Shown piece by piece: positions 2,623 through 52,062 of a stretch of DNA of 64,000 nt. The stretch comes from a virus. Numbering within the stretch: position 1 is the first letter of the stretch; each line of letters opens with the position of its first letter. Under the pieces are notes generated by a model that saw only the letters and a list, made by a program, of their open reading frames with translations, did not search any database and had not been told where the DNA came from. The DNA lies in IMG/VR virus record IMGVR_UViG_3300032294_001352, positions 1 through 64,000 of that record; one strand, written 5' to 3'. The translations under genes were made by a program, and so were the position numbers.

Positions 2623-3546
2623 ATGGGCAGGAATCGACCAAAAGCAGGCGTTGGTGTGGTTCAGCAAGTGGTGAATCAAATCCCCACTGATGGGCAGCCG
2701 ATTGACACGGCCTATCCCTATGAGGATGGCACGTATTATTACTTGTACGGATTTCCTAAGGAAGTACAAGACATGATTATTGGTGGCGGCAATGAAGAAG
2801 CAGAGTATGTTCGGAATGCGTCACCAGAAGAGTATGAGATCCGTAAAGGAACGTACCAAAGTTTGGGTCTAGACATTGAGAATCGTGTGGACCAGCAGAT
2901 ATTTGCGGATCTTACGAGCATGTTTTCCCCAGCAAATGGAGTCATTGCACGGCGCAGCATCAATGTTGGCTACTGGAATCGTGATGAGATCAACATTGAA
3001 AATCTTTCATTTTCTACCACAAAGGAAACGCCAGACTACGTGGGCTTTGCCATGATTGCTCGGCAGGTGACTGCGGCACAGGAGATTGCACGTCGTACCG
3101 GAATGATTGTGCACATAGACGTGAATGCAGCACAGGGTGGTACATATTCCGGTTTCTCAGTCTGGCCAAAACTCGGTTATGACTTTGAGATTCCTGAGCA
3201 ACTACAAACACTTCTTGTAGAGGATTATGGATTCAAAGAGAATGAAGTAGACAAAGGCACTGCCGCATTTATGAGTACATACAATCGCAACGGCTATGAC
3301 GGATATAGCGTGTGGCGTGAAATCACGGAAAATCTCAATCTAAGTTACTCACCAAGTGGGCGCACAACCATCTATCCTGATGGCCGATCAACGCCAGCAC
3401 TGGAAGTGACAAAAGAATACGCACGTCAATTCTCTAAGTCTGTTAAGCGGCAACAGCAGGGTGTCTTTGGGAATGGCCAACTGAGTGACGAAGATGACGC
3501 TATCCTGCATGAGATTTGGATGAACATGCGCAACGCAAAGGATTGA
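2623..3546 (+). CDS. MGRNR-tagged protein 1, GNAT-like acetyltransferase domain
   Basis: N-term MGRNRPKAGVGVV; GFAMIARQVTAA...GFSVWPKLGYDF shared with four paralogs. Confidence 0.6.
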   Translation: MGRNRPKAGVGVVQQVVNQIPTDGQPIDTAYPYEDGTYYYLYGFPKEVQDMIIGGGNEEAEYVRNASPEEYEIRKGTYQSLGLDIENRVDQQIFADLTSMFSPANGVIARRSINVGYWNRDEINIENLSFSTTKETPDYVGFAMIARQVTAAQEIARRTGMIVHIDVNAAQGGTYSGFSVWPKLGYDFEIPEQLQTLLVEDYGFKENEVDKGTAAFMSTYNRNGYDGYSVWREITENLNLSYSPSGRTTIYPDGRSTPALEVTKEYARQFSKSVKRQQQGVFGNGQLSDEDDAILHEIWMNMRNAKD

Positions 3547-4375
3547 TGATGGGGCGCAATCGGAAACGCACAAGTGCCAGTGTTGGAGCAGTCACCTACC
3601 GTATTGTTGAAAGCGGCAGTAGTGGTGACATCACCAAAGAACTTGGTGACTGGTCCACGTATCCACCACGCGCCAAATCCATGTTTCAAGACGGAGTAAG
3701 CACGTTGGCTGCGTTTGTTGCCAGTGATGAGCGATGGTCCAACTTAGTGCGTGACAAGTTTGGGCTTGATCCTGCCAATCCTGCACATCTTGAAGTTGTT
3801 GCGGCAGTCGCAGGAATCACCAGTGCAGAAGACTTAACGCTTGATGATGATGAGGAAAACACCATATTGTCATCTGGGCTTGATTCAAGTGGCCGTGTAT
3901 CTGTGTGGCCATCCGCTGATGGTACACGCATTGACGTGGATATTGGTACGTTTGCCAAATTACGGACATCCAATCAACCACGTCTAGCCTACGCAATGAT
4001 TCGACGCATGGTGTGGGGGATGCGGCAGTGGGCTGAGATACAGGGTGTTCCACCAGAGGGTGCTATTTACAGGCTGAGTCTGATGGAATGGCAATGAATG
4101 GAGTGGAAACATGGGCTAAACTCGGATTCAATTTCACGTTGCGTCGGGAACTCCGTAGTGCCGCAGAAGACGCAGGATTCAGTAGCACAAGCACACTGGA
4201 TCTAATGACGGAGCGGAATGCTAATGGTCAACTAGGCTTTGATGCGTGGAATAGCATTGTAGCCCAAGTGATTGCTGAGGATGGCAGCGCAGAAGCAGAT
4301 GGTGGATTCCAGATTGGAGATGGAAGCAGCAGTTTGCGTGTACTTCAACGATATGGTGAATTACAAGGCTATTAA
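3546..4375 (+). pseudogene. MGRNR-tagged protein 2, GNAT-like, split by a frameshift near 4058-4075 (ORFs 3546-4097 and 4088-4375)
   Basis: First half MGRNRKRTSASVGAV...AYAMIRRMV; second half GVETWAKLGFNF...LMTERNANGQLGFDAW matches the paralog C-termini. Confidence 0.6.
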
Positions 4376-4382
4376 GGAGTAG

Positions 4383-5042
4383 ATGATGGGAAGAAATCGT
4401 AAGAAGCGTGGTGTTGGGGCTGTGGAGGCTAAGATCTATGACGTTTTTGGGAACGTGATTGGAGAAACCACGCCAGAACCTGCGGCAACACCACCAGTGC
4501 AACCACAAACCGTAGAAGCACCAGCACCTGTAGCCAAAGTAAATGACTACATTGCCAATGTCACTGGTGATGGATTAACTAGTGCTACACGCTTGTCACT
4601 GAAAGAGTCAGAGTTTAACGACTTGACTCCTGATCAACGCACCAAGATGTTGCAAGATGTGACGAATGCAGCAGATGACATATCCGTAAAATTGGCTGAG
4701 CGGATTCTTGAACAAGGCGCACCACGCTTTGGTACACCAGAACGCACAGAGTTCCAGAACGCATTGAGCAACGTGGATGAACTGGGCAAAGTGGTATCAC
4801 TCTTGATGCGTGCTGACTTCCAAGATCAAAAGACAAGCCCAAGCAAGGCTGAGGCTGAGCGTGCCTATTTGCCGCAGTGGCGTGACTCATTCCGCTCATA
4901 CGTACTCCGAGAGATCCGTCAAGCCGTGCGCCAGATGGGTGACGCAGCACCAGCAGCACTCCGTGAATTGCGTGGCCAACAACGTGCTGTGGAAGAGGCA
5001 ATAGAGTTTGTACCGATTGCCGCACGGAATCGCGCACGATAG
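4383..5042 (+). CDS. MGRNR-tagged protein 3, helical, unknown function
   Basis: MGRNRKKRGVGAVEAKIYDVFGNVIGE; AAGGAG RBS. Confidence 0.75.
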   Translation: MMGRNRKKRGVGAVEAKIYDVFGNVIGETTPEPAATPPVQPQTVEAPAPVAKVNDYIANVTGDGLTSATRLSLKESEFNDLTPDQRTKMLQDVTNAADDISVKLAERILEQGAPRFGTPERTEFQNALSNVDELGKVVSLLMRADFQDQKTSPSKAEAERAYLPQWRDSFRSYVLREIRQAVRQMGDAAPAALRELRGQQRAVEEAIEFVPIAARNRAR

Positions 5043-5095: not shown

Positions 5096-6343
5096 ATGGG
5101 CCGTAATCGTAAAAAGGGTGGCGCAGGAGCAGGTGCAACGACGGCCACTCCAGTGCCGCAAGCAAACGCAGGAACAATCAATGGTTGGGAGCAAATTGGT
5201 GACAACGCAGACGGAACGCTTACCAAAGTGTTGCCAGATGGCACCGTCTTGACTATCTATCCAACGTCCTCTGGTCCAAATGATTTTGCGATTGACGTTG
5301 AGCAAGATCGAAGTGGTGGCGTTAGTGTGATTGCTGTAGAGGATGCACGCAACGCTGATGGCACGTTCAACATGGATGCAATTGCGGCAGCAGCACAACG
5401 CTACGCAGAAGCGTTGCAATCAGAAGAACCGTATTATGAGGATGAGGCAGAATTACAGTCAGGCCTTATTGACTTTCTCAATGAAATTGGTCGTGAAACT
5501 GGTGCACCTGGCTTCTTTGATCGCTTACTCCGTGGCGAACCAGTGCAGTCACCACAAGCCGTGGCTGAGTCACGCAAATTGGCTGATGAGTCCGCAAAGG
5601 CAGCAGATACGTTTGGTACGGTGGTGCAACGCATGGCACCGGACCAGATGAATGCACAACAGGCTGCTGCGGCACGTCAGGCCATTATCCAAGGCATTCA
5701 GGCTGCTGGTGGTGCACTGAGTAAGCAGGATTTGGCTGATATGCAGCGTATTGCTGGAATGCTCTCACCAAACTTTGTTGAGCGGCAACGGAATCGTGTG
5801 TTGGGTGGAATTGCTGCACTTGGCCGGATGCACGCAGACGTGGCCACGGCTTTGCGTCGTGGTACTAATGCTGGCATTCAGGAAGCGTTGGATCGCACGT
5901 CACGCGTAGAAGACGGCCTCCGTACTACGGTTGACACAGTGATGCAAGGTGCGCTGCAACAAGATGCGTTAGTGCGGCGCCTTAATGCACTATCCAAGCG
6001 TGCTGAGCGTCAGGGATTCCCAGAACCAGCACGTCAGGCCATCATTCAGGCTATCCGCTCATTACCACTTGTAGAACTGGAAAAATCAAGCAGTGGTGCT
6101 GTGGGAATGATTGCGCGCCTTGGTCGCAATGGCTTACTTCCAAGCGTACAAGCCGTAGCACAAGCACGCCAGTTGGGTGGGCGGCAAAACTTGCAGGCCA
6201 ATGTACAGGAAACGGCTGAGGGTATTGCGCGTGCAATCACTATCCGTCGTGAGCAACAAGGCCAGAAGTCACCTGCCAAACAAATCACTGATCGCCTACG
6301 CACGTTAGAGCGTGCCAGTGCTGTAGCACGCTCTGGTCGATAA
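5096..6343 (+). CDS. MGRNR-tagged protein 4, Ala/Gln/Arg-rich helical
   Basis: AGGAG RBS then MGRNRKKGGAGAGA. Confidence 0.75.
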   Translation: MGRNRKKGGAGAGATTATPVPQANAGTINGWEQIGDNADGTLTKVLPDGTVLTIYPTSSGPNDFAIDVEQDRSGGVSVIAVEDARNADGTFNMDAIAAAAQRYAEALQSEEPYYEDEAELQSGLIDFLNEIGRETGAPGFFDRLLRGEPVQSPQAVAESRKLADESAKAADTFGTVVQRMAPDQMNAQQAAAARQAIIQGIQAAGGALSKQDLADMQRIAGMLSPNFVERQRNRVLGGIAALGRMHADVATALRRGTNAGIQEALDRTSRVEDGLRTTVDTVMQGALQQDALVRRLNALSKRAERQGFPEPARQAIIQAIRSLPLVELEKSSSGAVGMIARLGRNGLLPSVQAVAQARQLGGRQNLQANVQETAEGIARAITIRREQQGQKSPAKQITDRLRTLERASAVARSGR

Positions 6344-6395: not shown

Positions 6396-7346
6396 ATGGG
6401 CCGTAATCGAAAAAAGGGTGGTGGTGCTGGGGCTGTGGAAAATCGTGAACCAGAGTTGGATTCAGGTGGTGGCGGCAATAATCAACCGTTTATCAATCCA
6501 CCAGAACCACAAGAAGAAGTTCCTGTTGAACCGCAGCCACAACCACGTCAACGTATGACACCAGAGCAAGTGTTTGGTCCAGACATTTACGATCCAGGCA
6601 TTCCGCGTCAACTTGAACCAGGCGGCATTCGTACTGCGTGGAATAATGCAACGGCTGCACAACTTGGTCGTGCATTAGAAGATGCGCCAACTGCACAATC
6701 ATTTACGATGATGTACAATTTGCCAACCGCACGCGAGTATTTTGACATTCCATCTAAAGAGCGAGCACCACTCACAAAACGCGAAGTATTGCAGTTGGCT
6801 GACGTGATTGGTGGTTCAGAAATTGTACGAAATGATGGATATGATGCACTTCTTCGTGATCTTGGACTTGAGGGAATGCCGCGTGCAACGTCACGTACTA
6901 TCCGAGTTGGCCGTGACACCAAGCCAATGGTTACGCGCGTCAGTCGGTTAGCACGAAAGTTGCCAGGTATTGAAAATCTTAATCCTGAAGATCGTGCGCG
7001 CGTTGGTGCTATCTTAGACGTGATTGGTGGTATCTCATTGACGCGTGAGCGTGCATGGGAAACCATGATTTTGACTCGTGGTCAAACAACGCCAAAAGGC
7101 GAAGTGATGGGGCGGCAAGTCAAACGATTGATTGCTGAGGGGCGTCGATTGTCTAATGAAATCAATCGCATTATGGGTGATAACACGCCACCACGAAAAG
7201 ATGGACTTCCTAAGCCTGGCACACCTGGTGCACAAGTGTATGACGCTCTCTTCACTAAGGCTGGTCGTGGGCATGATTTCCGCGCACGCAATCACAAGGC
7301 ACCGATGTACGCAGATCGTGGTCTAGAACAAATCAACAACGACTAA
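6396..7346 (+). CDS. MGRNR-tagged protein 5
   Basis: AAGGAG RBS then MGRNRKKGGGAGAVE. Confidence 0.75.
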   Translation: MGRNRKKGGGAGAVENREPELDSGGGGNNQPFINPPEPQEEVPVEPQPQPRQRMTPEQVFGPDIYDPGIPRQLEPGGIRTAWNNATAAQLGRALEDAPTAQSFTMMYNLPTAREYFDIPSKERAPLTKREVLQLADVIGGSEIVRNDGYDALLRDLGLEGMPRATSRTIRVGRDTKPMVTRVSRLARKLPGIENLNPEDRARVGAILDVIGGISLTRERAWETMILTRGQTTPKGEVMGRQVKRLIAEGRRLSNEINRIMGDNTPPRKDGLPKPGTPGAQVYDALFTKAGRGHDFRARNHKAPMYADRGLEQINND

Positions 7347-9427: not shown

Positions 9428-9771
9428 GTGCATTGATTATCCGCGCCAATGGCGCACACGAAGTCTTGCAGGGGCCTATCACGCTGCAACGCATTGAGCA
9501 GGCCCTTGGTGGCTGGGTGGTGGATGGTGTGACGGATTTGGGCTATCACGTCTGGGGTGCTGACATTGACGTGCTTGATGGCAATATTCCGGCCGATCCT
9601 GTGAAGTATCAGCCAAACATCCACGTATCACGCTTGTTTCGCCTTGTGATGTGGGGTGACGTGGTGGTCACTGGTTCACCGATTGCCAATTCACGGAGTA
9701 ATCGACTTGCGGCAGTGGATGAGAATCATTTGGCGTTGTTTATCAGTCATTTACCAAAGGAGCACGCATGA
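9424..9771 (+). CDS. Divergent DUF3846-like protein
   Basis: ALIIRANG...LQRIEQALGGWV...PN...WGDVVVTG; ATGA overlap with the previous gene. Confidence 0.5.
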   Translation: MSALIIRANGAHEVLQGPITLQRIEQALGGWVVDGVTDLGYHVWGADIDVLDGNIPADPVKYQPNIHVSRLFRLVMWGDVVVTGSPIANSRSNRLAAVDENHLALFISHLPKEHA

Positions 9772-10679
9772 CCAAAATCTTTACCTACTTTGGTGGCGAT
9801 CGCCAATTTGATACCGTGGCAAAGAGTCAGGATATTGAGGCCACGCTGCACGCTCGTGGGCTTGGCCACTATATCCAGATGGCAAAGCCACTCACGCAAC
9901 AGCAGGCAGAAACGTATGGGCATACTGCGGCATATGTCAAAGCGTTGATGACTGGGAATCCGTACTATCTTGCGTCTAGCAGTGGTCTTGCGTGGAATGT
10001 GCACTACCGGAACGCAATCTTTGGCATGGCCGGAGCAATGCTTGAAGCCATGCAATACACGCTTGTCACCAACAAGCCATCGTTCGCCCTTGCGGCAGGA
10101 GCGCATCACGCTCGACCAGAGAAAGGCAAAGGCTTTTGCGCGCTCAACTCCGTGGCCATGGCAGCGTTGTACGCAGCGCGATCCACTGGCCGTCAGGTGT
10201 ACGTGCTTGACGTGGATGCACACGCTGGTGGTGGCACCCAAGCATTCATCAACAAAGAGTACAATGAAGACATTCATCATCTTGATTTGATTGTGCATCC
10301 ATTTGATGCGTATGCGCCTGATCGACCACAAGACGCACAGATCACGGTAGATGTGTACAACATGAATCCAGTGGACGCGTATTTCAGTGGCCTTGGTGAG
10401 TTGCTCTCATTTGTAGACACCTGCTATCCAACCATTCCTGGTGACATCTTGATTGTGAATGCTGGATGTGATGTGCATGAGCAATCAGCCATTGGTGGCT
10501 GGGAGGGAATGGATACAGCGATGATCGCGGTTCGTGAGTCATGGATCCGTGAGTGGGCAGCGGAGCGCGGATTACGGATGGTAGGATTGTTGGCCGGTGG
10601 CTATAGTGATGAGCAATTCACGCCACAGCATCTAGCAGACACGCACGTTGCATCTATTGGCACGTTGATGGGATTATAG
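9768..10679 (+). CDS. Histone deacetylase (HDAC/AcuC) family Zn-dependent deacetylase
   Basis: Motifs GAHHA, GFCALN, LDVDAHAGGGTQ, NAGCDVH and LAGGYS in the canonical order. Confidence 0.9.
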   Translation: MTKIFTYFGGDRQFDTVAKSQDIEATLHARGLGHYIQMAKPLTQQQAETYGHTAAYVKALMTGNPYYLASSSGLAWNVHYRNAIFGMAGAMLEAMQYTLVTNKPSFALAAGAHHARPEKGKGFCALNSVAMAALYAARSTGRQVYVLDVDAHAGGGTQAFINKEYNEDIHHLDLIVHPFDAYAPDRPQDAQITVDVYNMNPVDAYFSGLGELLSFVDTCYPTIPGDILIVNAGCDVHEQSAIGGWEGMDTAMIAVRESWIREWAAERGLRMVGLLAGGYSDEQFTPQHLADTHVASIGTLMGL

Positions 10680-15249: not shown

Positions 15250-15900
15250 ATGGAGGATGACATGGGATTACTGTTGGCAAATCTCCCACCGAAGCAGGTG
15301 CTGGTCCGTCGTGAGTTCCTGATGGATTTCGCTGAGGGTGATGGGGAATACGTAGAGGGCTACTGGATTGCAGTGAAGAGCGTACCTGGTCGTGCATTGT
15401 ACTTCGAGACATATCTGCCTGCCTATGGGGCTGTATACGATAAGTTGCCATTACATGCGTTTGTTACAATGATTCACGCCGATCCTGCGCCAATGCTATC
15501 AGATGTGCAGTATTGGGATGCAATGGATTACGGAGTGACGGTGATAGAGAAAACATTCTTAAAGAACACGGTAGCAGAAGTGCGCCCACCAAATAATGAC
15601 ACGGTGCGTGGGCAATACTGGTTTACGATAGACTTCTATTCCCCAACTGACACCATGGTAGATTCCCAGTGGGCGCATGTACCAAGCGAGCATAAGGCCG
15701 TGAATATCATTGCATTAGATAACGGCCTCATTGTGGGCTATCCTAATAATCGATGTCGGTTCTTTGATGGATCGCTGAGTGGCCAACAGGTAGGCGCGCC
15801 ACGCTTGAAAGCCAGCACGCGCGTCTGGTCCGCTGATGCTGAGCGATCTCGGTACTCACGGTATGGTGATACGGATACATGGGAATACACCAAGGAGTAA
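15250..15900 (+). CDS. Conserved phage hypothetical protein
   Basis: LANLPP..VRREFL...VKSVPGRALYFETYL..YGAVYDKLP; family recognised from memory only. Confidence 0.6.
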   Translation: MEDDMGLLLANLPPKQVLVRREFLMDFAEGDGEYVEGYWIAVKSVPGRALYFETYLPAYGAVYDKLPLHAFVTMIHADPAPMLSDVQYWDAMDYGVTVIEKTFLKNTVAEVRPPNNDTVRGQYWFTIDFYSPTDTMVDSQWAHVPSEHKAVNIIALDNGLIVGYPNNRCRFFDGSLSGQQVGAPRLKASTRVWSADAERSRYSRYGDTDTWEYTKE

Positions 15901-15904
15901 TGTG

Positions 15905-16708
15905 ATGCGTGTCTTTAGTTTCGGTGGTGGCGTGCAAAGCATGGCCGTCTTAGTACTCTCTGCCCAAAGCGTGCTGCCTTATACGCATTTCGTGTTGGCC
16001 AATGTCGGTGATGATAGTGAGAATCCGGCCACGCTTGACTATGTGCGCCATATTGCAATGCCTTACGCAGATGCACACGGCCTTCAAGTGGTAGAGATTA
16101 AGCGCCCACGAAAGCCAGAGCAAGACCAAACGTTGTTTGAGGATGCATGGAATGAGAATGGAAACATTCCGATCCCAGTGTATATGACCAATAGCGGGCC
16201 TGGTTCACGCAACTGCACATCTGTATGGAAGATTAAAGTGATTGAGCGCTGGATGCGTGACAACGCTGGTGCAACCAAGAAGAATCGCGTACCGTTAGGT
16301 GTGGGGATTAGTGTGGATGAATCGCACCGAATGCGTACTGATGATCCGGAGCGTGAACCCTATCTCTATAAAGAATATCCACTGATTGACTTGATGATGA
16401 CACGCAACAAGTGTCAAGACGCAATCATCAAAGCAGGTTTGCCGCTCGCTCCCAAGTCATCCTGCTGGTTCTGTCCATACAAGCGAAAAGCCGAGTGGTC
16501 CAAGATGCGTGCTGAGCAGCCGGATTTATGGAGTAAGGCCGTAGAGTTAGAGCAGCGAATCGTGGCCAAACGTGTACGTGCTGGCAAAGATCCGGCCTAT
16601 CTCACGGCCTACAACAAACCACTTGAAGACATTATCCCACTCATATCCGTCAACATGTTTGATGATGACGATCCGATGGCGTGCGAGTCAGGCTACTGCA
16701 TGACGTGA
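15905..16708 (+). CDS. PAPS reductase-like (adenine nucleotide alpha hydrolase) protein
   Basis: SFGGGVQS PP-loop, CT..WK, GISVDE, YPL, KSSCWFCPY, C-terminal CESGYC. Confidence 0.8.
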   Translation: MRVFSFGGGVQSMAVLVLSAQSVLPYTHFVLANVGDDSENPATLDYVRHIAMPYADAHGLQVVEIKRPRKPEQDQTLFEDAWNENGNIPIPVYMTNSGPGSRNCTSVWKIKVIERWMRDNAGATKKNRVPLGVGISVDESHRMRTDDPEREPYLYKEYPLIDLMMTRNKCQDAIIKAGLPLAPKSSCWFCPYKRKAEWSKMRAEQPDLWSKAVELEQRIVAKRVRAGKDPAYLTAYNKPLEDIIPLISVNMFDDDDPMACESGYCMT

Positions 16709-16716
16709 TAACCAGA

Positions 16717-17349
16717 CTACGGAGCATTGAGTGTGCGCTCATACGTTGCCTTAGCGCGTTCTAAATCTTGCCGCAGTCGATACACTTTGTATTGATCTCG
16801 TGGTGATGGTACGCCAATCGGTGGGCGCATCAACCGATCAATCTGTTGCTCTAACCTACCAATCTTTTCTGATAGGTTCTGCAACTTCGTTTCTTTTGAT
16901 GTACTTGTAGCAGATGCACGTTGCGTTTGACGCGGTTTTGGCTGCTCAGTAGGTGCTGGCGTGGCCGGTGTTGATGTTTCCGCACGTTCTGTTGGTTCAT
17001 ATTGATAACGTTGAATGTTTTGTCTAGACCATTGATCCATTGCGTCTGATACAACGTTCCAGTTGACTGTTCCATTGACGTTTCGGCTATTAGGAATTGT
17101 GACTAATCCCTCATCTGACATTGTTGTACCGGTACCTTCAACTTCCCATGCGTACAAATCAGGATCAGCAGAATTATTAGCAGTCTGAACAAGTAACTGT
17201 GTGCGATCAGGAAATCTGCGAATAATGCTGTCACCAGAATCATCAAATGGCTTCCAATTTGCATTCATATTCATTGTGTTGGTTGCCGCATTAGTGGGTG
17301 CTTCCGGTGATACTGCACCTGATCCTGCTTTCTTTCGATTACGGCCCAT
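16717..17349 (-). CDS. MGRNR-tagged protein 6
   Basis: MGRNRKKAGSGAV after a GAGGTG RBS; N-domain resembles protein 4 (W..F/I.D..D....PD.T.L). Confidence 0.75.
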   Translation of the reverse strand: MGRNRKKAGSGAVSPEAPTNAATNTMNMNANWKPFDDSGDSIIRRFPDRTQLLVQTANNSADPDLYAWEVEGTGTTMSDEGLVTIPNSRNVNGTVNWNVVSDAMDQWSRQNIQRYQYEPTERAETSTPATPAPTEQPKPRQTQRASATSTSKETKLQNLSEKIGRLEQQIDRLMRPPIGVPSPRDQYKVYRLRQDLERAKATYERTLNAP

Positions 17350-21433: not shown

Positions 21434-22927
21434 ATGGCAAACATCACTGAAGACACCCTTAATTTGATTAAGGCGGCACATGCCCAGCAGGGTGACAACA
21501 TCAGCAAGAGCATTACCACTGCCAATAATTTGGTGGCGTATGACTTGCAGGCACCGGCTAAGAATCTCTATCCGGTACAGACTCCTATCCGCAACACGTT
21601 GCCACGCACCGGTGGTATCGGTACGGCCACCAACTGGCGCACCGTGCGAAACATCATCGGTTCTGGCTTTGATGCCATGGGCTGGGTGCCGGAAGGCCAG
21701 CGCAGTGGTCGCATGTCGTACTTGACGCAATCACTCAGTGCATCGTATAAGACGATGGGTGAGGAAGATCAAGCAACGTACGAAGCCATTAGTGCTGGTC
21801 GTGGCTTCGAAGACATTCGCGCTCGCATGACCATGCGCTTGTTGCAGAAGTTGATGCTCAAAGAGGAAGCAGCCATCATTGGCGGCAACACTTCGGTTTC
21901 ATTGAGCGCTCCGGCTGCGCCAACCGTCAGTGCTGGTGCCTCAGGTGGTACCGTTGCTGCGGATAACTACTACGTCTGGTGTGTTGCGCTCACCTATGAG
22001 GGGTATCGCAACTCAAGCGTTGCCAGTGGCGTGGCCACGAGTCAGACCATCACCGGTGCTGACGGCCTCACCTACACGTTGAGTGGTGGTTCAAGTGCGG
22101 CATCAGCCATCTCATTGGTCCAAGCCATCACCCTTGGTCAGACGCTCCGTGCATCTGTTCCTGTGGTCAACGGTGCGATTGGCTATGCATGGTACGTGTC
22201 AAAGACCAACAACACGGCTGGTACTGCGTTCTTGCAGGCCATCACCACAATCAACTCAGTGGAGTTCACTGCACCAGTGGTTACGAGCGGCACGCAGTTG
22301 GTTACGGCTATCACGGCCAACAACTCAACCAACACCTTGGCCTTTGACGGCTTGATGTATCAGGCATTCAACACGTCAAGTGGTGCCTACGTGCAGCCAT
22401 TGGCCACCGGTACGGCCGGTACTGGCACTCCGTTGACGGCCAGTGGTCGTGGTTCAGTAGAAGAGATTGACGACATGTTGGTCACGATGTGGAACAACAA
22501 CCAGTTGTCACCCACCGTCATCTACTGTAACGCTCAGGAAATCCGCAACATCTCAAACAAGGTGTTGAGTGGCGGCACCAATGCTCCGTTGGTCCGTTAC
22601 AACCTGAACAATGAGCAATCAATGGCTATCGGTGCTAGCCCATTCATTGACTCATACTTCAATCCAATCACCAAGCAGCCATTGAAGGTGGAAGTGCATC
22701 CAAACGTTCCTCCTGGCACGATCTTGGCCTGGGCTGACAACTTGCCAGCACAGTATCAGTCAAGTGAAGTACCAAACGTGGCTGAAATCCGCGCACGTCA
22801 AGACTACTACCAGATTGACTGGCCTGTCACCAGCCGTCAACAACAGGTTGGCGTGTACGCTGAGGAAGTCTTGGTTGTCTACGCTCCGTTTGCGATTGGT
22901 ATCATCACCAACATCGCCAACGGTTAG
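21434..22927 (+). CDS. Major capsid protein (HK97 fold, with insertion domain)
   Basis: Position after protease-scaffold; AGGAGG RBS; YDLQAPAK.LYP..TP.RN.LPR and AFDGL motifs. Confidence 0.85.
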   Translation: MANITEDTLNLIKAAHAQQGDNISKSITTANNLVAYDLQAPAKNLYPVQTPIRNTLPRTGGIGTATNWRTVRNIIGSGFDAMGWVPEGQRSGRMSYLTQSLSASYKTMGEEDQATYEAISAGRGFEDIRARMTMRLLQKLMLKEEAAIIGGNTSVSLSAPAAPTVSAGASGGTVAADNYYVWCVALTYEGYRNSSVASGVATSQTITGADGLTYTLSGGSSAASAISLVQAITLGQTLRASVPVVNGAIGYAWYVSKTNNTAGTAFLQAITTINSVEFTAPVVTSGTQLVTAITANNSTNTLAFDGLMYQAFNTSSGAYVQPLATGTAGTGTPLTASGRGSVEEIDDMLVTMWNNNQLSPTVIYCNAQEIRNISNKVLSGGTNAPLVRYNLNNEQSMAIGASPFIDSYFNPITKQPLKVEVHPNVPPGTILAWADNLPAQYQSSEVPNVAEIRARQDYYQIDWPVTSRQQQVGVYAEEVLVVYAPFAIGIITNIANG

Positions 22928-46368: not shown

Positions 46369-46827
46369 ATGGGGCGCAATCGAAAAAAGTCTGGCGTAGG
46401 CGCAGTGACTGCGGCACCGGCACCACCGGAGCGTGGTGGTGAGCGTGTGCGAATGGATCGTGCGTTCAATCAACTTCCGGTGGATCGCATCATTCAAGAA
46501 CTGCGTGACAACGTCAGTTTTAACCTACCAGACGTAGAAGACACGTACCGTGAGCGTGACACCGGATTCTCTATAGATAACCGTCAGGAAATGCAAGACT
46601 TCATTGACCAGTTGATGAGTGCGAAGCGGCAAGATGGTTCATGGGATATGAACGCACTGGATGCAGCAGCGCAATACTTCCAAGACGCTCCGTCACGCGA
46701 AGTGTTTTTCCCTGATAATAAAGCAAGAATTGGTGACTTTGGTGAGGAACTGGCTGGCTTCTTACGAGATGTGCGGCAAGCGTATGAACGTGGTGGTGAC
46801 GAGGCAGTTCGTCAGTTAGGAGTGTAG
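46369..46827 (+). CDS. MGRNR-tagged protein 7
   Basis: MGRNRKKSGVGAV; shares R..DG...M.A..AAAQ with protein 4. Confidence 0.75.
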   Translation: MGRNRKKSGVGAVTAAPAPPERGGERVRMDRAFNQLPVDRIIQELRDNVSFNLPDVEDTYRERDTGFSIDNRQEMQDFIDQLMSAKRQDGSWDMNALDAAAQYFQDAPSREVFFPDNKARIGDFGEELAGFLRDVRQAYERGGDEAVRQLGV

Positions 46828-46828
46828 T

Positions 46829-47725
46829 ATGCCATTTGTGATGCAAGAGCGACCAGACGGCCGGATTAACGTCGTCAATCCAATTACTGGGGAAGTCAAA
46901 GGCACGCACAAGAACAAGCGGCAAGCGTTGGCACAGATGCGTGCGTTGTACGCCAATGTACCAGATGCAATGCAGAAGCGTCGTAACAATGAACCGACCA
47001 ATCCGCAACTGTGGATGCAGGCCAAGAACCAGGCTAAGCGTCGATTCACGGTGTATCCATCAGCCTATGCCAATGCGTGGGCAGCACGGTGGTATAAGGA
47101 GCATGGAGGTGGATGGAAAGAAGCATCATCACCACCGACGGAAACGCGTGATCCACGGAGCGTACAGAAAGATCTGCGTGAGTGGTTTAAGGAAGACTGG
47201 GTGGACATCTCTAAGCCTATCCGTGAGAACGGAAAGATTGTTGGCTATGAGCAATGCGGCAGGGCTGAGGCTGAGGCCTCTGAGGGTGGTTATCCCAAGT
47301 GTCTGCCCAAAGCCAAAGCAATGAAGTTGTCAGAGATGGACCGGTTGAAACTGATTGCACGGAAGCGTCGTGCTGGTACGCCAACGGATGGCAAACCTAT
47401 CATGACAAGCAGCATGACGAAGAAAGCGGCAACGGCTAAGGCACTCTTACAGAAGATGCAGCGGATGTATCAACCTGAGGAATGGGTGGACATTACCAAG
47501 CCTATCCGTGACAACGCAGGATTGATTGTGGGCTTTCAAGATGTCACCTACAAAAAGGAAGCCAAGTTTCCTATGCGTCGTCAGCAGGCTGTCAAGATGA
47601 CGGAGCAAGAGCGGCAAGCACTTATCCGCAATCGCTTTGGCCACATGCTTACGGATGATGGTGTACCAGTTGCGTCAAAGAAAGAAAAGACCATGAAGAA
47701 GTATGGTCGGTACAAGCGTCAGTAG
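46829..47725 (+). CDS. DUF5872-like basic multi-module phage protein
   Basis: YPSAYANAWAARWYKEHGGGW; LREWFKEDWVDI..P; CGR...YPKCLP; WVDI.KPIR occurs twice. Confidence 0.6.
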   Translation: MPFVMQERPDGRINVVNPITGEVKGTHKNKRQALAQMRALYANVPDAMQKRRNNEPTNPQLWMQAKNQAKRRFTVYPSAYANAWAARWYKEHGGGWKEASSPPTETRDPRSVQKDLREWFKEDWVDISKPIRENGKIVGYEQCGRAEAEASEGGYPKCLPKAKAMKLSEMDRLKLIARKRRAGTPTDGKPIMTSSMTKKAATAKALLQKMQRMYQPEEWVDITKPIRDNAGLIVGFQDVTYKKEAKFPMRRQQAVKMTEQERQALIRNRFGHMLTDDGVPVASKKEKTMKKYGRYKRQ

Positions 47726-47739
47726 CACTGAGGAAACAC

Positions 47740-48567
47740 ATGGGAAGAAATCGCAAACCATCTCGGGAAGTTGCAGCACCTGCGGCAAGTGTGGAGTCCG
47801 TGAGCAAACGGATTAACACCACGCTTGAAGACGCACTCTGGTCCATGTCCACACAAGGCCTCATCTATGATGGCGAGTACGTGGTGCGTGACAATCTGGC
47901 CGACGAAGCCTTTCGAGATGGAATGCGTTATCTGGGGCTGAATCCAGATCGGCCTCGCGATGTGGAGATTATTGCGGCAGCCATAGGAATCTTTGGCGAG
48001 GAAGAAAGTGACATCTACGTGCGCCCAGCAGATGCTCAGTACGATATGGGAATCATATCCATGAGCATGGCTGCAGAAGCCCAACGTGGATTCAAAGTGC
48101 TGCCAGATAAAGTGGTCGTGGAAAACGTGTCATTTGCCAAAGGCCTCACTCCGTCAGACAACATTGGCTATGCAATGCTCGTGCGGCAAGCGTGGGCACT
48201 CCGAAAGATCGGTGAGCGATTAGGCAAACCAGTGGTAGTCAGCACGTCAGCACTCAGTGATGATGACTACTGGAAAGGCGTGCAAGTGTGGCCAAAGATG
48301 GGCTACAACTTCCCACTCACAGGTATTATCCGTGAGCGTGCCATGGCCAATGGCTTCCAAGCACGCAACACTCCGGAACTGATGACTGAAGTCAATGCCG
48401 CAGGCGAAACAGGATACGATGCGTGGGGCAGGATCGTTAGTGAGGCGTTGAAATACATGCCAGACAAAGAACTCCGTATCCGTGGCAGCATGACGGTGAC
48501 GGATGACAATGATACTGGACTTCAGGTGTTGTTGAACTATGGGCGGCAAAAAGGAATATTGGAGTAG
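47740..48567 (+). CDS. MGRNR-tagged protein 8, GNAT-like
   Basis: MGRNRKP; IGYAMLVRQA...GVQVWPKMGYNF. Confidence 0.65.
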   Translation: MGRNRKPSREVAAPAASVESVSKRINTTLEDALWSMSTQGLIYDGEYVVRDNLADEAFRDGMRYLGLNPDRPRDVEIIAAAIGIFGEEESDIYVRPADAQYDMGIISMSMAAEAQRGFKVLPDKVVVENVSFAKGLTPSDNIGYAMLVRQAWALRKIGERLGKPVVVSTSALSDDDYWKGVQVWPKMGYNFPLTGIIRERAMANGFQARNTPELMTEVNAAGETGYDAWGRIVSEALKYMPDKELRIRGSMTVTDDNDTGLQVLLNYGRQKGILE

Positions 48568-48570
48568 CAC

Positions 48571-49692
48571 ATGGGCAGGAATCGACGTAAAGCCGGAGTA
48601 GGTGCTGTGGAGCGTGCAGTCTATGACATCTTTGGCAACATCATTGGCCAAGAAGATGACGTTGCTCCTACTCCTACGGAAACCATCACTACCATATCCG
48701 ATCCTGACTTTGAACACGTAGATACCACCGTGTTCAATCCTGTGGCATACTCTGCAACGTTACAAACTATGCTCAAAGAGCAATATGCTGATATGAATCA
48801 AGTGATCTCTATAGGAATGGAGTATTTGAAATCTATATCTGGCAATTCTCAGGATGACTGGATAATAAATAACATGCCGCAAGTACAAACTGTAAAAGGA
48901 ATGATTGCATTAGGATTAGATCCTCAAGTACCGTCTGATAGACGTTTATATACTGATTTAATATCAGGAACAAGCAATTTTTATTCAGGTAAGTGGAATC
49001 CCTCACCTGAAGAAAGAAAGGAAATGCGAAAGCAAGATGCATCTGTACCTGATACTGGAGATGTAGAGTTTGAAGTAGGATTCAGCAGACGCATTAAAGT
49101 AGATAATCCAACAAAAGTAGTAATATCCAATGTGTCATTTTCAGCATCAAAGACTGCTCCTCCAGGAATTGGCTATATGATGATTGCACGTCAGATTAGT
49201 GCCGCGCGTCAACTTGCAAAAAAATTAGGAAAACCAGTAGAGATTGAAACAACTGCTCATAACTCAGAACAATCACAAAAAACAAAGAAGGGTAATACCG
49301 GTTTTCACGTTTGGCCAAAACTTGGCTATGTCTTTGAGATTCCTGAAACCGTCAAAGTTGAATTGCGTCGCATGGGATTTACAGACAAACAAATGAACAA
49401 TTCAGCAACACTGATGCAAAGCCGAAATCCACAAGGCCAACTTGGTTTTGACGTGTGGAGTAAAGCACTAGTAGCAGAAGGTGATAGTAAGTGGGCTGTG
49501 AATGGAAGAACAGTCATAAATCCGAATGCATCAACACCATCACCTGCTGAGCAAGTCACGATTGCCTACGGAAAGCGCAAAGGCTATCTCAAAATGCAGC
49601 AGAATAAGCGGCAAAACAATGACGTGTTCCTCAGTTCAGAAGATGACGCAATCCTACGTGACGTGTGGGCTTCCATGGGAAGATTGGAGTAG
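48571..49692 (+). CDS. MGRNR-tagged protein 9, GNAT-like
   Basis: MGRNRRKAGVGAVERAVYDIFGN; GIGYMMIARQI...GFHVWPKLGYVF. Confidence 0.65.
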   Translation: MGRNRRKAGVGAVERAVYDIFGNIIGQEDDVAPTPTETITTISDPDFEHVDTTVFNPVAYSATLQTMLKEQYADMNQVISIGMEYLKSISGNSQDDWIINNMPQVQTVKGMIALGLDPQVPSDRRLYTDLISGTSNFYSGKWNPSPEERKEMRKQDASVPDTGDVEFEVGFSRRIKVDNPTKVVISNVSFSASKTAPPGIGYMMIARQISAARQLAKKLGKPVEIETTAHNSEQSQKTKKGNTGFHVWPKLGYVFEIPETVKVELRRMGFTDKQMNNSATLMQSRNPQGQLGFDVWSKALVAEGDSKWAVNGRTVINPNASTPSPAEQVTIAYGKRKGYLKMQQNKRQNNDVFLSSEDDAILRDVWASMGRLE

Positions 49693-49695
49693 CAG

Positions 49696-50769
49696 ATGGG
49701 CAGAAACCGGAAAAAGGCTGGTGTGGGCGCGGTTGAACGTGCTATCTACGATATTTTTGGCAACGTGATTGGCCAAGAAGATGAGAATGCGGCACCTGCT
49801 CCGGTGAGCGATCAACCAGTCATTCTTACCGGAGCGGAACTCACGCGCCAGTTAGGTGACACCAGTGGATTCTCACCCAATGTCCGGAAGTTGTTCACTG
49901 ACGTGGAATCACCTATCGTCACCAATGATCCGCGCGTACAAAAGAACATGCGGCAACTGGGATTGGATGACACCAATCCTGAGCATCGCCGAATCTTTCG
50001 CATTCTGTTTGGCTTACATGAAGGCACTGGGAAAATGGAGCATCCCAATCCGGCCATCTTGGTGAATGATGACCAAGAGATTATAGACGCCGATGCCGCA
50101 TTCTCCGTTGGATCACGTGGGAAGTTCGCAGGTGTGGATCGTGCAGCAAACTCCACAATGCGTCTGGCCATCATCAAAGGCGATAACGTCATCATTGAGA
50201 ATCACACCTACGTGATGACGGATCCGAATGAGCAGATGCAAGGTGCTGGCTATGCCATGCTCCGGATGCAGGCCTATGCCGCACGCAGACTCAATGAGAT
50301 AACTGGGCGCAACGTCACCATCCGGACCACAGCACTCTCACGAGATGCACGGCTTGATCCGAATGGGATAGAGTGGGTGGGTGCGCATACGTGGCCAAAG
50401 TTAGGCTATGACTTTGACTTCAACGATCCGCGCGTGCCTAGTGATTTGGTGGAATCACTCCGTGCCGCAGGCTTCAAGAGTATGCGTAGCAGCGACTTGA
50501 TGAGTGAAGTCAACGCAGATGGTGAGCGTGGCTATGACGTGTGGCCGTTCATTGTGGATGAGATTCTAAGCATTGATGGCCAACTGAGCATGAAAGGCAC
50601 CATGAACGTCACCAATGACAACGATCGTGGACTCCAAGTCATGCAGAACTATGGGCGGCAAAAGGGAATCGTTAAGGGTGGCACGACGCGCAACGTGGGT
50701 GGCGTGGATGGGATTACACTGACTGGGATGGATAACGATATTCTTCGCCAACTGTGGCAGCAGATATAG
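49696..50769 (+). CDS. MGRNR-tagged protein 10, GNAT-like
   Basis: MGRNRKKAGVGAVERAIYDIFGN; QMQGAGYAML (QxxGxG)...GAHTWPKLGYDF. Confidence 0.7.
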   Translation: MGRNRKKAGVGAVERAIYDIFGNVIGQEDENAAPAPVSDQPVILTGAELTRQLGDTSGFSPNVRKLFTDVESPIVTNDPRVQKNMRQLGLDDTNPEHRRIFRILFGLHEGTGKMEHPNPAILVNDDQEIIDADAAFSVGSRGKFAGVDRAANSTMRLAIIKGDNVIIENHTYVMTDPNEQMQGAGYAMLRMQAYAARRLNEITGRNVTIRTTALSRDARLDPNGIEWVGAHTWPKLGYDFDFNDPRVPSDLVESLRAAGFKSMRSSDLMSEVNADGERGYDVWPFIVDEILSIDGQLSMKGTMNVTNDNDRGLQVMQNYGRQKGIVKGGTTRNVGGVDGITLTGMDNDILRQLWQQI

Positions 50770-50793
50770 GCGGCATGTAGATAGGAGATTGCT

Positions 50794-51948
50794 ATGAGTT
50801 TTGCGATTGACATCCGACAGTGGAAGACGGTAGAAGCCTTTGAGGCGCATCTGAATGCACACGATCCTGCTATCTGTGATTGGGTGCAAGGCATCGTGAT
50901 TCATCATACGTGGCGACCACTGCCCAGTCAGTGGCGTGGCCGATCGTCGATTGAGGGAATGAAAGCGTACTATGAGCGGCAGTCACCACCGTGGACTGCT
51001 GGACCACACTTGTTCATTGTGACTGGCAGCCCTAATCCGTCTGATGACGGTATCTGGCAGATGACTCCGCTCAACATGGTGGGTGTACACGCTACGGTGT
51101 GTAATCCAACAACGTGGGGCATTGAAGTGGTGGGTGACTATGATGATGAACCGTGGACATTTTCTACCAAGCAGTTGGCGGTTGGTGCTGCTGCGGCATT
51201 GGCCAAGTGGCGCGGAATCATCATCTCACCTCAGACGGTAAAAGGCCATCGGGATTGTAAGAGCAGCAAGTCATGTCCAGGCAATGCCATCAACATGCAG
51301 CAGGTGCGTGACTGGATTAACGCAGAGATCAATGGCACACCAGCGCGTGAACCAATCACGGCTGACAGTCAGATCCTTGCGGCACCACGATGCAGCATGG
51401 AAACTGCGTTGGATTACATCATGAACCGGAATCCACGGCCTGCGTACACGCTGAGTGATTTCTCTATTCATATCCTGCCTGCATACTGGCAGTTAGGCAA
51501 ACTGACTGGTGTTGATCCGTGTATTGCCATTGCCCAAGCAATCCATGAAACGGCCAACTTTAGCAGTTGGTGGTCGTTGCGCCCACGACGCAATCCTGCT
51601 GGGATCGGGGTGACAGGCCAATCTAGCCGAACCGCGCCACATCCTGAGGAAGTCAACAAGTGGGCATATGACAAAGACGTGAACCTGTGGAAGTTCGGTT
51701 TATCGTTCCCATCATGGCAGGTGAGTGCATTGGCACACATGGGCCGATTATGTGCATACGCAACCAAGCCTGCTGAACGCTCACCAGAGCAACAGAAGAT
51801 TGTAGAACAAGCATTGATGATGCGATCGCTTCCATTGGCCTTACAGGGAAGCGCGCCGGTGCTCTTTGGCCTTAATGGGAAGTGGGCTTATCCTGGCACC
51901 ACGTATGCCCAACGGATTGCTGCCATAGCCACAGAGATGGCATTCTAG
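50794..51948 (+). CDS. Endolysin: N-acetylmuramoyl-L-alanine amidase plus glucosaminidase-like domain
   Basis: IVIHHT, GPHLFI, HA..CN, GIEVVG, GHRD, KSCPG; then G.DP..A.AQ..HET and NPAGIG. Confidence 0.85.
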   Translation: MSFAIDIRQWKTVEAFEAHLNAHDPAICDWVQGIVIHHTWRPLPSQWRGRSSIEGMKAYYERQSPPWTAGPHLFIVTGSPNPSDDGIWQMTPLNMVGVHATVCNPTTWGIEVVGDYDDEPWTFSTKQLAVGAAAALAKWRGIIISPQTVKGHRDCKSSKSCPGNAINMQQVRDWINAEINGTPAREPITADSQILAAPRCSMETALDYIMNRNPRPAYTLSDFSIHILPAYWQLGKLTGVDPCIAIAQAIHETANFSSWWSLRPRRNPAGIGVTGQSSRTAPHPEEVNKWAYDKDVNLWKFGLSFPSWQVSALAHMGRLCAYATKPAERSPEQQKIVEQALMMRSLPLALQGSAPVLFGLNGKWAYPGTTYAQRIAAIATEMAF

Positions 51949-52033: not shown

Positions 52034-52062
52034 TTGACAAACTATACATTTTGTCTTACAAT
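52034..52062 (+). promoter_or_regulatory. Sigma70-like promoter for the ncRNA cluster
   Basis: TTGACA-17 bp-TACAAT. Confidence 0.75.

Follow-up and report, generated by a model that had tools for sequence, protein, structure and literature searches.

Internal proteins of phage T4, which are packed in the head and injected, share a short N-terminal capsid targeting sequence, and the Alt ADP-ribosyltransferase of the same phage is packaged in the head. A wider set of candidate head-delivered effectors comes from the phage polyvalent proteins, which, in the account of Iyer et al. 2017 (PMC5512222), hold GNAT domains, typically beside an ART domain. The solo GNATs described there lie among late or structural genes and are predicted to be deployed from the capsid and to act on proteins, and MuF, ART, Zeta-toxin and 2H domains are named as the usual company of such effectors. 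Here we describe five paralogous genes in the first 64,000 bases (hereafter the window) of IMG/VR record IMGVR_UViG_3300032294_001352, the 87,876-bp genome of an uncultured tailed phage of siphovirus type with 123-base terminal repeats; sequencing runs with matching sequence are labeled freshwater, drinking water or metagenome. The five proteins very probably have the GNAT (acyl-CoA N-acyltransferase) fold, as part of a branch of it that is large, highly divergent and so far without annotation, and all of them open with a short peptide, MGRNR, that also opens otherwise different proteins of this phage. Each is named below by the first base of its reading frame, and coordinates are given in Table 1.

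Searching the genome with the 49696 protein as query recovered the 47740 gene (E 2.1e-33, 44% identity), the 48571 gene (E 1.1e-19) and, at the other end of the window, the stretches 4076-4372 (E 7.4e-15), 2959-3522 (E 8.1e-12) and 3621-3821 (E 4e-5). The four unbroken copies are 28-39% identical in pairs and share 34 invariant alignment columns (LGL, N, G..M...Q..A, G...WPK.GY.F, GF, M...N..G..G...W and Y). These columns hold every motif from which the initial annotation had defined a family of five, and its statement that all five carry the tag was borne out. It had also recognized the GNAT motif A, as QMQGAG, in the 49696 protein, where the motif is indeed present at residues 180-185, and had called the other copies degenerate at this place. 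That description fits the 47740, 2623 and 3549 copies, in which the first glycine of the G-x-G loop is lost, and only in part the 48571 copy, which keeps G-x-G. The 3549 copy reads R-L-A here and has also lost the asparagine, glutamine and proline of the family, while the family N, Q, W and Y occur together in the other four.

The 3549 copy had been listed as a single gene at 3546-4375. A paralog is present there, but the record divides it between two frames. This split is seen in this record only: the pieces correspond, with 100% identity, to residues 1-174 and 174-276 of a continuous 276-amino-acid database protein (P0034). A 59,666-base contig from one sequencing run (X1, depth 21.9), possibly the sample from which the record derives, and contigs of another (X4, depth 2.9) have four extra letters behind position 4067 and keep one frame, and the contigs of runs X2 and X3 break at the 4067 site without bridging it. 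We attribute the break either to a slip of the assembly or to a minor variant, and treat the gene as intact. With a branch length of 1.82 in the tree described below, it has nevertheless diverged further than any other copy.

The AlphaFold2 model of the 49696 protein, built from 39 sequences, reached a predicted local distance difference test score (pLDDT) of 82.6 and a predicted template modeling score of 0.83, with pLDDT of 90-98 in the core blocks. Three long antiparallel strands (132-174) lead into the QMQGAG loop; a long helix then spans residues 184-203 and the next strand 206-216, and WPKLG falls in a short helix (229-236). After one more, short strand comes a helical insert of about 55 residues, followed by a strand at 296-304 and a helix at 311-323. 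Set against the GNAT order b1-a1-a2-b2-b3-b4-a3-b5-a4-b6-b7, the sheet is mixed and the core reads b2-b3-b4, G-x-G loop, a3, b5, a4 (WPKLGY), b6, the insert, b7 and a C-terminal helix. Foldseek, which had been proposed along with AlphaFold as the check on the fold, gave acetyltransferases in 35 of the 44 matches listed; the best was NatD at E 0.074, and none reached E<=1e-3. A further structure search gave acetyl- or acyltransferases, judged by title, in 35 of the 50 matches shown, and three that were clearly something else (6cay, 2pcs and 3q63). In the ESM Atlas, the closest cluster (template modeling score 0.60) bears the automatic name GNAT, and 13% of its members carry Phage_Mu_F; true GNAT clusters come next for both the 49696 and the 2623 protein, which represent the two main clades.

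Sequence profiles gave the same register. When 200 copies of the domain were compared by hhalign with 19 true GNATs, drawn from one bacterial genome, the score was 32.2 (P 8.5e-4) over 55 columns spanning b4-a3-b5-a4-b6, with G-x-G paired to G-x-G; one reversed and 20 block-shuffled controls scored 9.3-16.5, and none of the 21 reached 32.2. The hhalign probability was 23.7%, and the link is therefore a distant one. Pfam Acetyltransf_1 was matched inside domain copies of the relatives P0038 (48 bits), P0043 (21.3 bits, against a cut-off of 20.7) and P0054, and also, at E<=0.01, by small members in two sets (7 of 59 and 3 of 57). We therefore regard the fold and a distant kinship with GNATs as well supported. 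What did not stand of the earlier GNAT-like label is any match at the level of curated models: a GNAT model was matched above its cut-off in relatives, but by no window paralog.

Conservation was scored over the same 200 domain copies and is given in 49696 numbering. Asn169, in b4, is kept in 91%, Gly183 in 88%, Gly185 in 93%, Gln192 in 88%, Ala213 in 94%, Gly229 in 99%, Trp233 in 98%, Gly237 in 97%, Trp283 in 97% and Tyr319 in 89%. The Asn, Gly/Ala, Gln and Trp occur together in 164 of the 200, including nearly every copy of the multi-copy proteins. The retention of polar residues near the loop with which GNATs bind the pyrophosphate of CoA points to a putative ligand site. The most variable part is formed by the N-terminal helices (46-104), which are placed where GNATs bind the acceptor, and this fits different targets for different paralogs.

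To place the five copies, we used a tree of 33 core sequences, in which P0034 stood in for the two split-gene pieces and one truncated locus ORF (open reading frame) was left out. The 49696 protein groups with P0002 (support 97/99), the 2623 protein with P0026 and P0027 (93/84) and the 48571 protein with P0005 (88/68); the 47740 protein lies in a clade supported at 83/97, and the two main clades at 100/100. Each paralog therefore groups with proteins of other phages and not with its genome neighbors, as expected of the diversified set that had been proposed, and the set is old and maintained, with no recent burst of duplication.

Thirteen ORFs in the genome, 10 of them inside the window, start with MGRNR and differ in the rest of the protein. 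Each has a GGAG-type ribosome site. Among the 13, the tag glycine is written with three synonymous codons, the first arginine with five and the second with four, so it is the peptide, and not the DNA, that is conserved. The tag always opens with Met-Gly followed by basic residues. Two related forms occur in the lineage, MGRNRKK-G-GAV... in this phage and a longer MGTRTYSRRG... in related contigs, with P0002 intermediate, and a related tag stands on 4-6 ORFs in each of two such contigs, L009 and L015. The tag is disordered in the 49696 model, where residues 1-25 have pLDDT below 50. When the rest of the genome, capsid protein and protease included, was scanned for the extended tag motif, only the four tagged genes that have it came up.

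Both window clusters of tagged genes are tightly packed plus-strand operons, and the one at 46369-51948 closes with an endolysin; the endolysin gene, directly after the last paralog, marks this operon as late-type. Scans for promoters and terminators inside both clusters gave nothing above shuffled expectation. The L009 contig mirrors the window at 46369-51948, with a tagged gene, a DUF5872-like gene, a tagged gene for a Zeta-toxin-like kinase (5128-6135, Pfam E 5.8e-25), three tandem GNAT-like genes, a further tagged gene and an endolysin. This kinase shows that the tag carries classic effector domains. On L015 a DUF4417 protein, the large terminase (TerL) and the portal are followed, in this order, by five tagged genes, of which the last is GNAT-like. 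The position directly after the portal gene is the usual place of head-accessory genes. A Pfam search of further tagged proteins (three from the genome beyond the window, P0006, P0090, four from L015 and two from L009) matched the L009 Zeta toxin only. We had noted by eye an H-x-H...S..D pattern in P0006 and considered a JAB/RadC domain; this was dropped, as Pfam did not confirm it. The literature search found no paper on this tag or family, and Iyer et al. 2017 was the sole relevant one.

Two side observations concern genes inside or near these arrays. The tagged operon includes the gene of an untagged DUF5872 protein, whose position is kept in L009 (4215-5126). The DUF4417 protein immediately precedes the large terminase gene on L015 (1466-2770), and in the present genome it lies beyond the window (73873-74250), before an ORF of matching size; the ORFs that follow it, 74454-75788 and 75785-77899, agree in size and order with TerL and portal of L015.

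The family extends well beyond this phage. A profile of eight close sequences matched 257 representatives at E<=1e-3 among 1.84 billion proteins. The family is unannotated: where a source name was recorded it was "hypothetical protein", as in a member from a named isolate without any Pfam domain, and most members have no Pfam match. The core is present in 147 of 151 proteins, among which the tagged and the giant form never coincide. The 22 tagged proteins all have at most 373 amino acids, and none of the 51 proteins of at least 800 amino acids is tagged. Two to four domain copies occur in 37 proteins (four in P0038, three each in P0043 and P0046, two in P0054). Partner domains of the large proteins include ART and LigT/2H in P0046, a 2H/Acb1-like domain in P0054 and Zeta toxin with NUDIX in P0167, and Phage_Mu_F occurs in 2 of 59 small members. 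GNAT models were the only Pfam families to match the core itself repeatedly. P0009, P0033, P0031 and P0053 match no Pfam family at all, and PHROGs searched with five giant relatives gave a single family of unknown function. As an observation confined to one protein, residues 1062-1144 of P0038 match SocA_Panacea, an antitoxin family, at 38.5 bits, a sum of weak matches, the strongest of which overlaps copy four of the GNAT-like domain in its C-terminal half.

Relatives were sparse among catalogued phages. The region 47740-50769 had no megablast match in GenBank phages, and tblastn of the 49696 protein and of P0043 against 50,697 GenBank phage records gave none; P0046 matched three huge uncultured phages, by its 2H/LigT part only and not by the GNAT-like domain. 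A scan of IMG/VR with profile A2 gave 65 pattern matches, of which none was confirmed as a relative. The wider family was found in 88 stretches of bacterial genomes, mostly of Planctomycetota and otherwise of Acidobacteriota, Chloroflexota and Pseudomonadota, and a profile of the solo bacterial proteins matches the phage family with 98.5% probability. A terminase-like ORF, recognized from its P-loop by eye and not scanned, neighbors the bacterial copy in 7 loci.

In all five Schlesneria-type genomes, one ORF of 990-1011 amino acids joins an N-terminal Phage_portal domain (E ~1e-30) to a C-terminal GNAT-like domain, downstream of a terminase-like gene. The fusion is shown by the Pfam portal model; phmmer searches of the large ORFs with the portals of this phage and of L015 gave no match, and no MuF was found at the fusion ORFs of these five genomes. 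As read from the genes, the fusion ties the domain physically to the phage head. The initial annotation had suggested that the five proteins are possibly injected, and the suggestion gains indirect support from this fusion, from the MuF, ART, 2H and Zeta-toxin partners of relatives and from the tagged genes that stand right after the portal gene of L015.

We hypothesize that the five proteins are head cargo addressed by the tag, which would be injected and acylate host targets; for this reading taken whole, we regard the chances as about even. The tag peptide would address the proteins to the interior of the procapsid. The tagged proteins would be synthesized late and, once packed in the head, would reach the cell together with the DNA. 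There, those copies whose loop is intact and which retain the conserved N, Q, W and Y would transfer an acyl group from acyl-CoA to different host targets, of which host proteins are the most likely. Defense proteins, RNA polymerase and tRNAs had been put forward in the initial annotation as possible, conjectural targets. The lack of MuF in the genome, the disordered tag, the portal and effector fusions elsewhere and the operon context together led us to propose that in this lineage the tag has taken the place of an anchoring fusion and that the five proteins are head cargo. We lean towards packaging in the head as such, and think it somewhat less likely than not that the proteins are active acyltransferases acting on host molecules.

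A number of results weigh against this hypothesis, and several of them also favor other explanations. Six ORF pieces covering the window paralogs gave two chance-level matches and no GNAT model in Pfam at E<=1, and none in PHROG at E<=0.01. Acetyltransf_1 found nothing in the six-frame translated genome at E<=10, though it matched 14 of 14 control genomes; a PDB sequence search with profiles A2 and A4 gave chance-level matches only; and no more than 10 of 116 small relatives matched Pfam GNAT models, all weakly. Such results would be expected if the proteins had an unrelated alpha/beta domain whose likeness to GNATs were convergent or due to chance. We consider this explanation highly improbable, since four independent kinds of test agree on the fold and on the register of motifs A and B, the hhalign controls stay below the observed score, and no Pfam families other than GNATs match the core repeatedly.

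The motifs themselves supply a second group of contrary points. The full Q/R-x-x-G-x-G is found in the 49696 copy only, the 47740 and 2623 copies are without the first loop glycine, and the 3549 copy is without most of the conserved residues. Position 230 is Tyr in 75% of the wider family and A, V, F and F in the four unbroken window copies. Taken with the lack of a Pfam GNAT match, the incomplete motif A in three of the five copies and the further losses in the 3549 copy would suit pseudoenzymes or scaffolds of GNAT fold, which would be located inside the head without catalyzing anything, would bind DNA, capsid or host factors and would still be brought there by the tag. The many copies per virus, up to four per polypeptide, could also suit a bulk or structural role. 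We nevertheless think this unlikely, as N169, Q192, Y319 and the G-x-G are kept in about 90% of the 200 copies, which looks like a ligand or active site more than bare upkeep of the fold, and in the window only the 3549 copy lacks part of the N, Q, W and Y set.

Delivery by the head meets contrary points of its own. No MuF was found in the genome or, by Pfam, in eight giant relatives. The portal fusions are 79-88% identical to each other and so represent about one event, and a portal match was found in the same ORF in none of five other large genomic ORFs. In bacterial genomes, 57 of 83 ORFs are solo, with 195-350 amino acids, and six bacterial loci viewed by eye, without a scan of the neighbors, had no obvious phage setting. 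The many solo bacterial relatives would also fit enzymes that are not injected at all and that act in the infected cell on components of the phage itself, with the tag as a substrate mark or a signal for turnover or localization. Examples would be acylation of the Lys-rich tag, of its N-terminal Gly or of polyamines, with the product of an HDAC-family gene in the window (E 1.5e-29) as the reverse step. The invariable Met-Gly and basic residues of the tag fit such a role, as does the top Foldseek match, NatD, an N-terminal acetyltransferase, although its rank does not set it apart from other GNATs. Modification of one tag would call for a single enzyme, however, and there are five old subfamilies whose acceptor-side helices vary; moreover, the enzymes are themselves tagged, and effector delivery is what the fusions of the domain with portal, ART and Zeta-toxin proteins suggest. 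We therefore judge non-injected enzymes improbable, somewhat more so than pseudoenzymes.

A last alternative is that the proteins are toxins of the TacT/AtaT kind, which would block translation by acetylating charged tRNAs and shut down the host after injection. Charged tRNA is the target of TacT and AtaT, and Cas12a that of the GNAT AcrVA5; neither has a bearing on the targets here. The structures of AcrVA5 (6iuf), TacT (7ak7, 6g96) and AtaT (6gtp) were no closer to our model than those of other GNATs, with no sequence match and no antitoxin neighbor. The paralogs are spaced 2-24 bases from one another or from other tagged genes, with no small partner ORF found on the same strand, and the neighbors of the bacterial copies showed no antitoxin-like gene that recurred. 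We regard this alternative as very unlikely.

Beyond the hypothesis of tag-addressed, injected cargo, the arrangement raises a more speculative one, which we consider possible and somewhat doubtful. The lineage may carry a dismantled "polyvalent" effector, in which separate module genes, each addressed to the capsid by one short N-terminal peptide, take the place of a single giant anchored by portal or MuF. The modules would be the five GNAT-fold enzymes, the Zeta-toxin-like kinase of the relative and about eight unknown domains, and the address peptide would consist of Met-Gly, a basic run and then A-G-x-G/E-A-V/I.

Table 1. Coordinates of the GNAT-fold paralogs, the tagged genes and other features (window positions unless a contig is named)
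Feature	Coordinates	Strand	Remarks
Paralog, 357 aa, clade A	49696-50769	+	tag residues 1-28; GNAT-fold core ~57-325; full Q-x-x-G-x-G (QMQGAG, 180-185)
Paralog, 373 aa, clade B	48571-49692	+	tagged; G-x-G kept (PPGIGY); nearest relative P0005, from another phage
Paralog, 275 aa, clade A	47740-48567	+	short tag form MGRNRKPS; first G of G-x-G replaced (NIG)
Paralog, 307 aa, clade B	2623-3546	+	tagged; first G of G-x-G replaced (YVG)
Fifth paralog	3549-4375	+	split into 3549-4097 and 4088-4375 in the record; most diverged copy
Tagged gene, 152 aa, unknown family	46369-46827	+	in tightly packed operon with the three tandem paralogs
Three tagged genes	4386-5042, 5096-6343, 6396-7346	+	directly downstream of the first paralog pair; no family matches
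Tagged gene	16717-17349	-	sole minus-strand tagged gene of the window
DUF5872 protein	46829-47725	+	untagged
Endolysin (Amidase_2 + Glucosaminidase)	50794-51948	+	24 bases past the last paralog
Promoter-like site	52034-52062	+	11/12 matches
HDAC-family gene (Pfam Hist_deacetyl)	9768-10679	+	2.4 kb from the first tagged cluster
PAPS-reductase-like gene	15836-16708	+	phrog_424, E 2.8e-37
Protein with prohead serine protease S78 domain, 978 aa	18481-21417	+	S78 domain at residues 350-510
Probable capsid gene	21434-22927		
Tape measure protein, 1658 aa	25840-30816		
Very large ORF, 1776 aa	30830-36160	+	no Pfam or PHROG match
Very large ORF, 1133 aa	39496-42897	-	no Pfam or PHROG match
Portal-fusion ORF	L032 3037-6018		same ORF in L047, L054, L061 and L080; prophages

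Several neighboring features deserve mention. The product of the HDAC-family gene could be an acetylpolyamine amidohydrolase, or else a deacylase counteracting the GNAT-fold proteins or complementing them. The S78 ORF, immediately 5' of the probable capsid gene, is an unusually large protease fusion, with an N-terminal match to a PHROG of unknown function and some 470 residues beyond the S78 domain. We infer only that it is a candidate processing enzyme or partner of the tagged cargo. The PAPS-reductase-like gene stands tail to tail with the minus-strand tagged gene. The promoter-like site, the best of its region, lies just past the endolysin gene, at the end of the tagged operon and the start of a new unit. 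AT skew is strongly negative (-0.21 to -0.33) across the minus-strand block at 40-46 kb.

If the hypothesis of injected acyltransferases is true, a family of hundreds of proteins in phages, prophages and bacteria gains its first fold assignment and a likely role as delivered acyltransferases, and the five old paralogs would provide enzymes directed at different host molecules as early as the first minutes of infection. The family would also be a natural test case for head loading, with portal fusion, giant protein and short tag as three formats of one domain. Were catalysis absent, it would still exemplify an enzyme fold reused as head cargo.

Compared with canonical GNATs (Acetyltransf_1; 3tcv, 1yre/PA3270, NatD 4u9w and RimI 5isv), the proteins have the same order of strands and helices, the G-x-G loop between b4 and a3 and an aromatic-x-K/R-x-G-aromatic segment at a4-b6. 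They differ in an identity of 4-14%, a root mean square deviation of 3.4-5.8 A, the insert of about 55 residues between b6 and b7, their own invariant N, Q, W, W and Y, and a Trp at the place of the a4 Tyr of many GNATs. The polyvalent GNATs, in the description given by Iyer et al. 2017 (PMC5512222), are alike in company, as relatives of the present proteins have ART, 2H/LigT, Zeta-toxin, NUDIX and MuF partners. The location of the domain in giant proteins, typically near ART, that is described there is seen in relatives (51 of 147 have at least 800 amino acids) and not in the window genes. Unlike the families as described there, the window copies have no Pfam match, the family has up to four tandem copies and, in one group, a portal fusion, and the genes here are separate, each with a common N-terminal tag and no fusion. 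The proteins may nevertheless belong to one of the two RimI-like families of that paper.

That GNAT domains occur in polyvalent phage proteins, and that solo versions are thought to be capsid-deployed, is known already. The divergent, unannotated branch with its own insert and invariant residues, the tandem multi-copy proteins, the portal fusion of one group and the spread over three to five tagged genes in this lineage are new. The tag recalls the capsid targeting sequence of T4 in that one short N-terminal peptide is common to unrelated proteins of one phage whose genome has a prohead protease. It differs in having no sequence likeness to that signal, in belonging to a siphovirus with an HK97-type S78 protease and in occurring in two related forms within its lineage. 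If it proves to be a capsid address, the tag is a more novel feature than the GNAT family; and if the dismantled-effector proposal is right, it amounts to a modular code for loading cargo into the head of a tailed phage, comparable to the targeting peptides of encapsulins, with the GNAT-fold proteins as its most expanded cargo class and a new, widespread family of acyltransferases.

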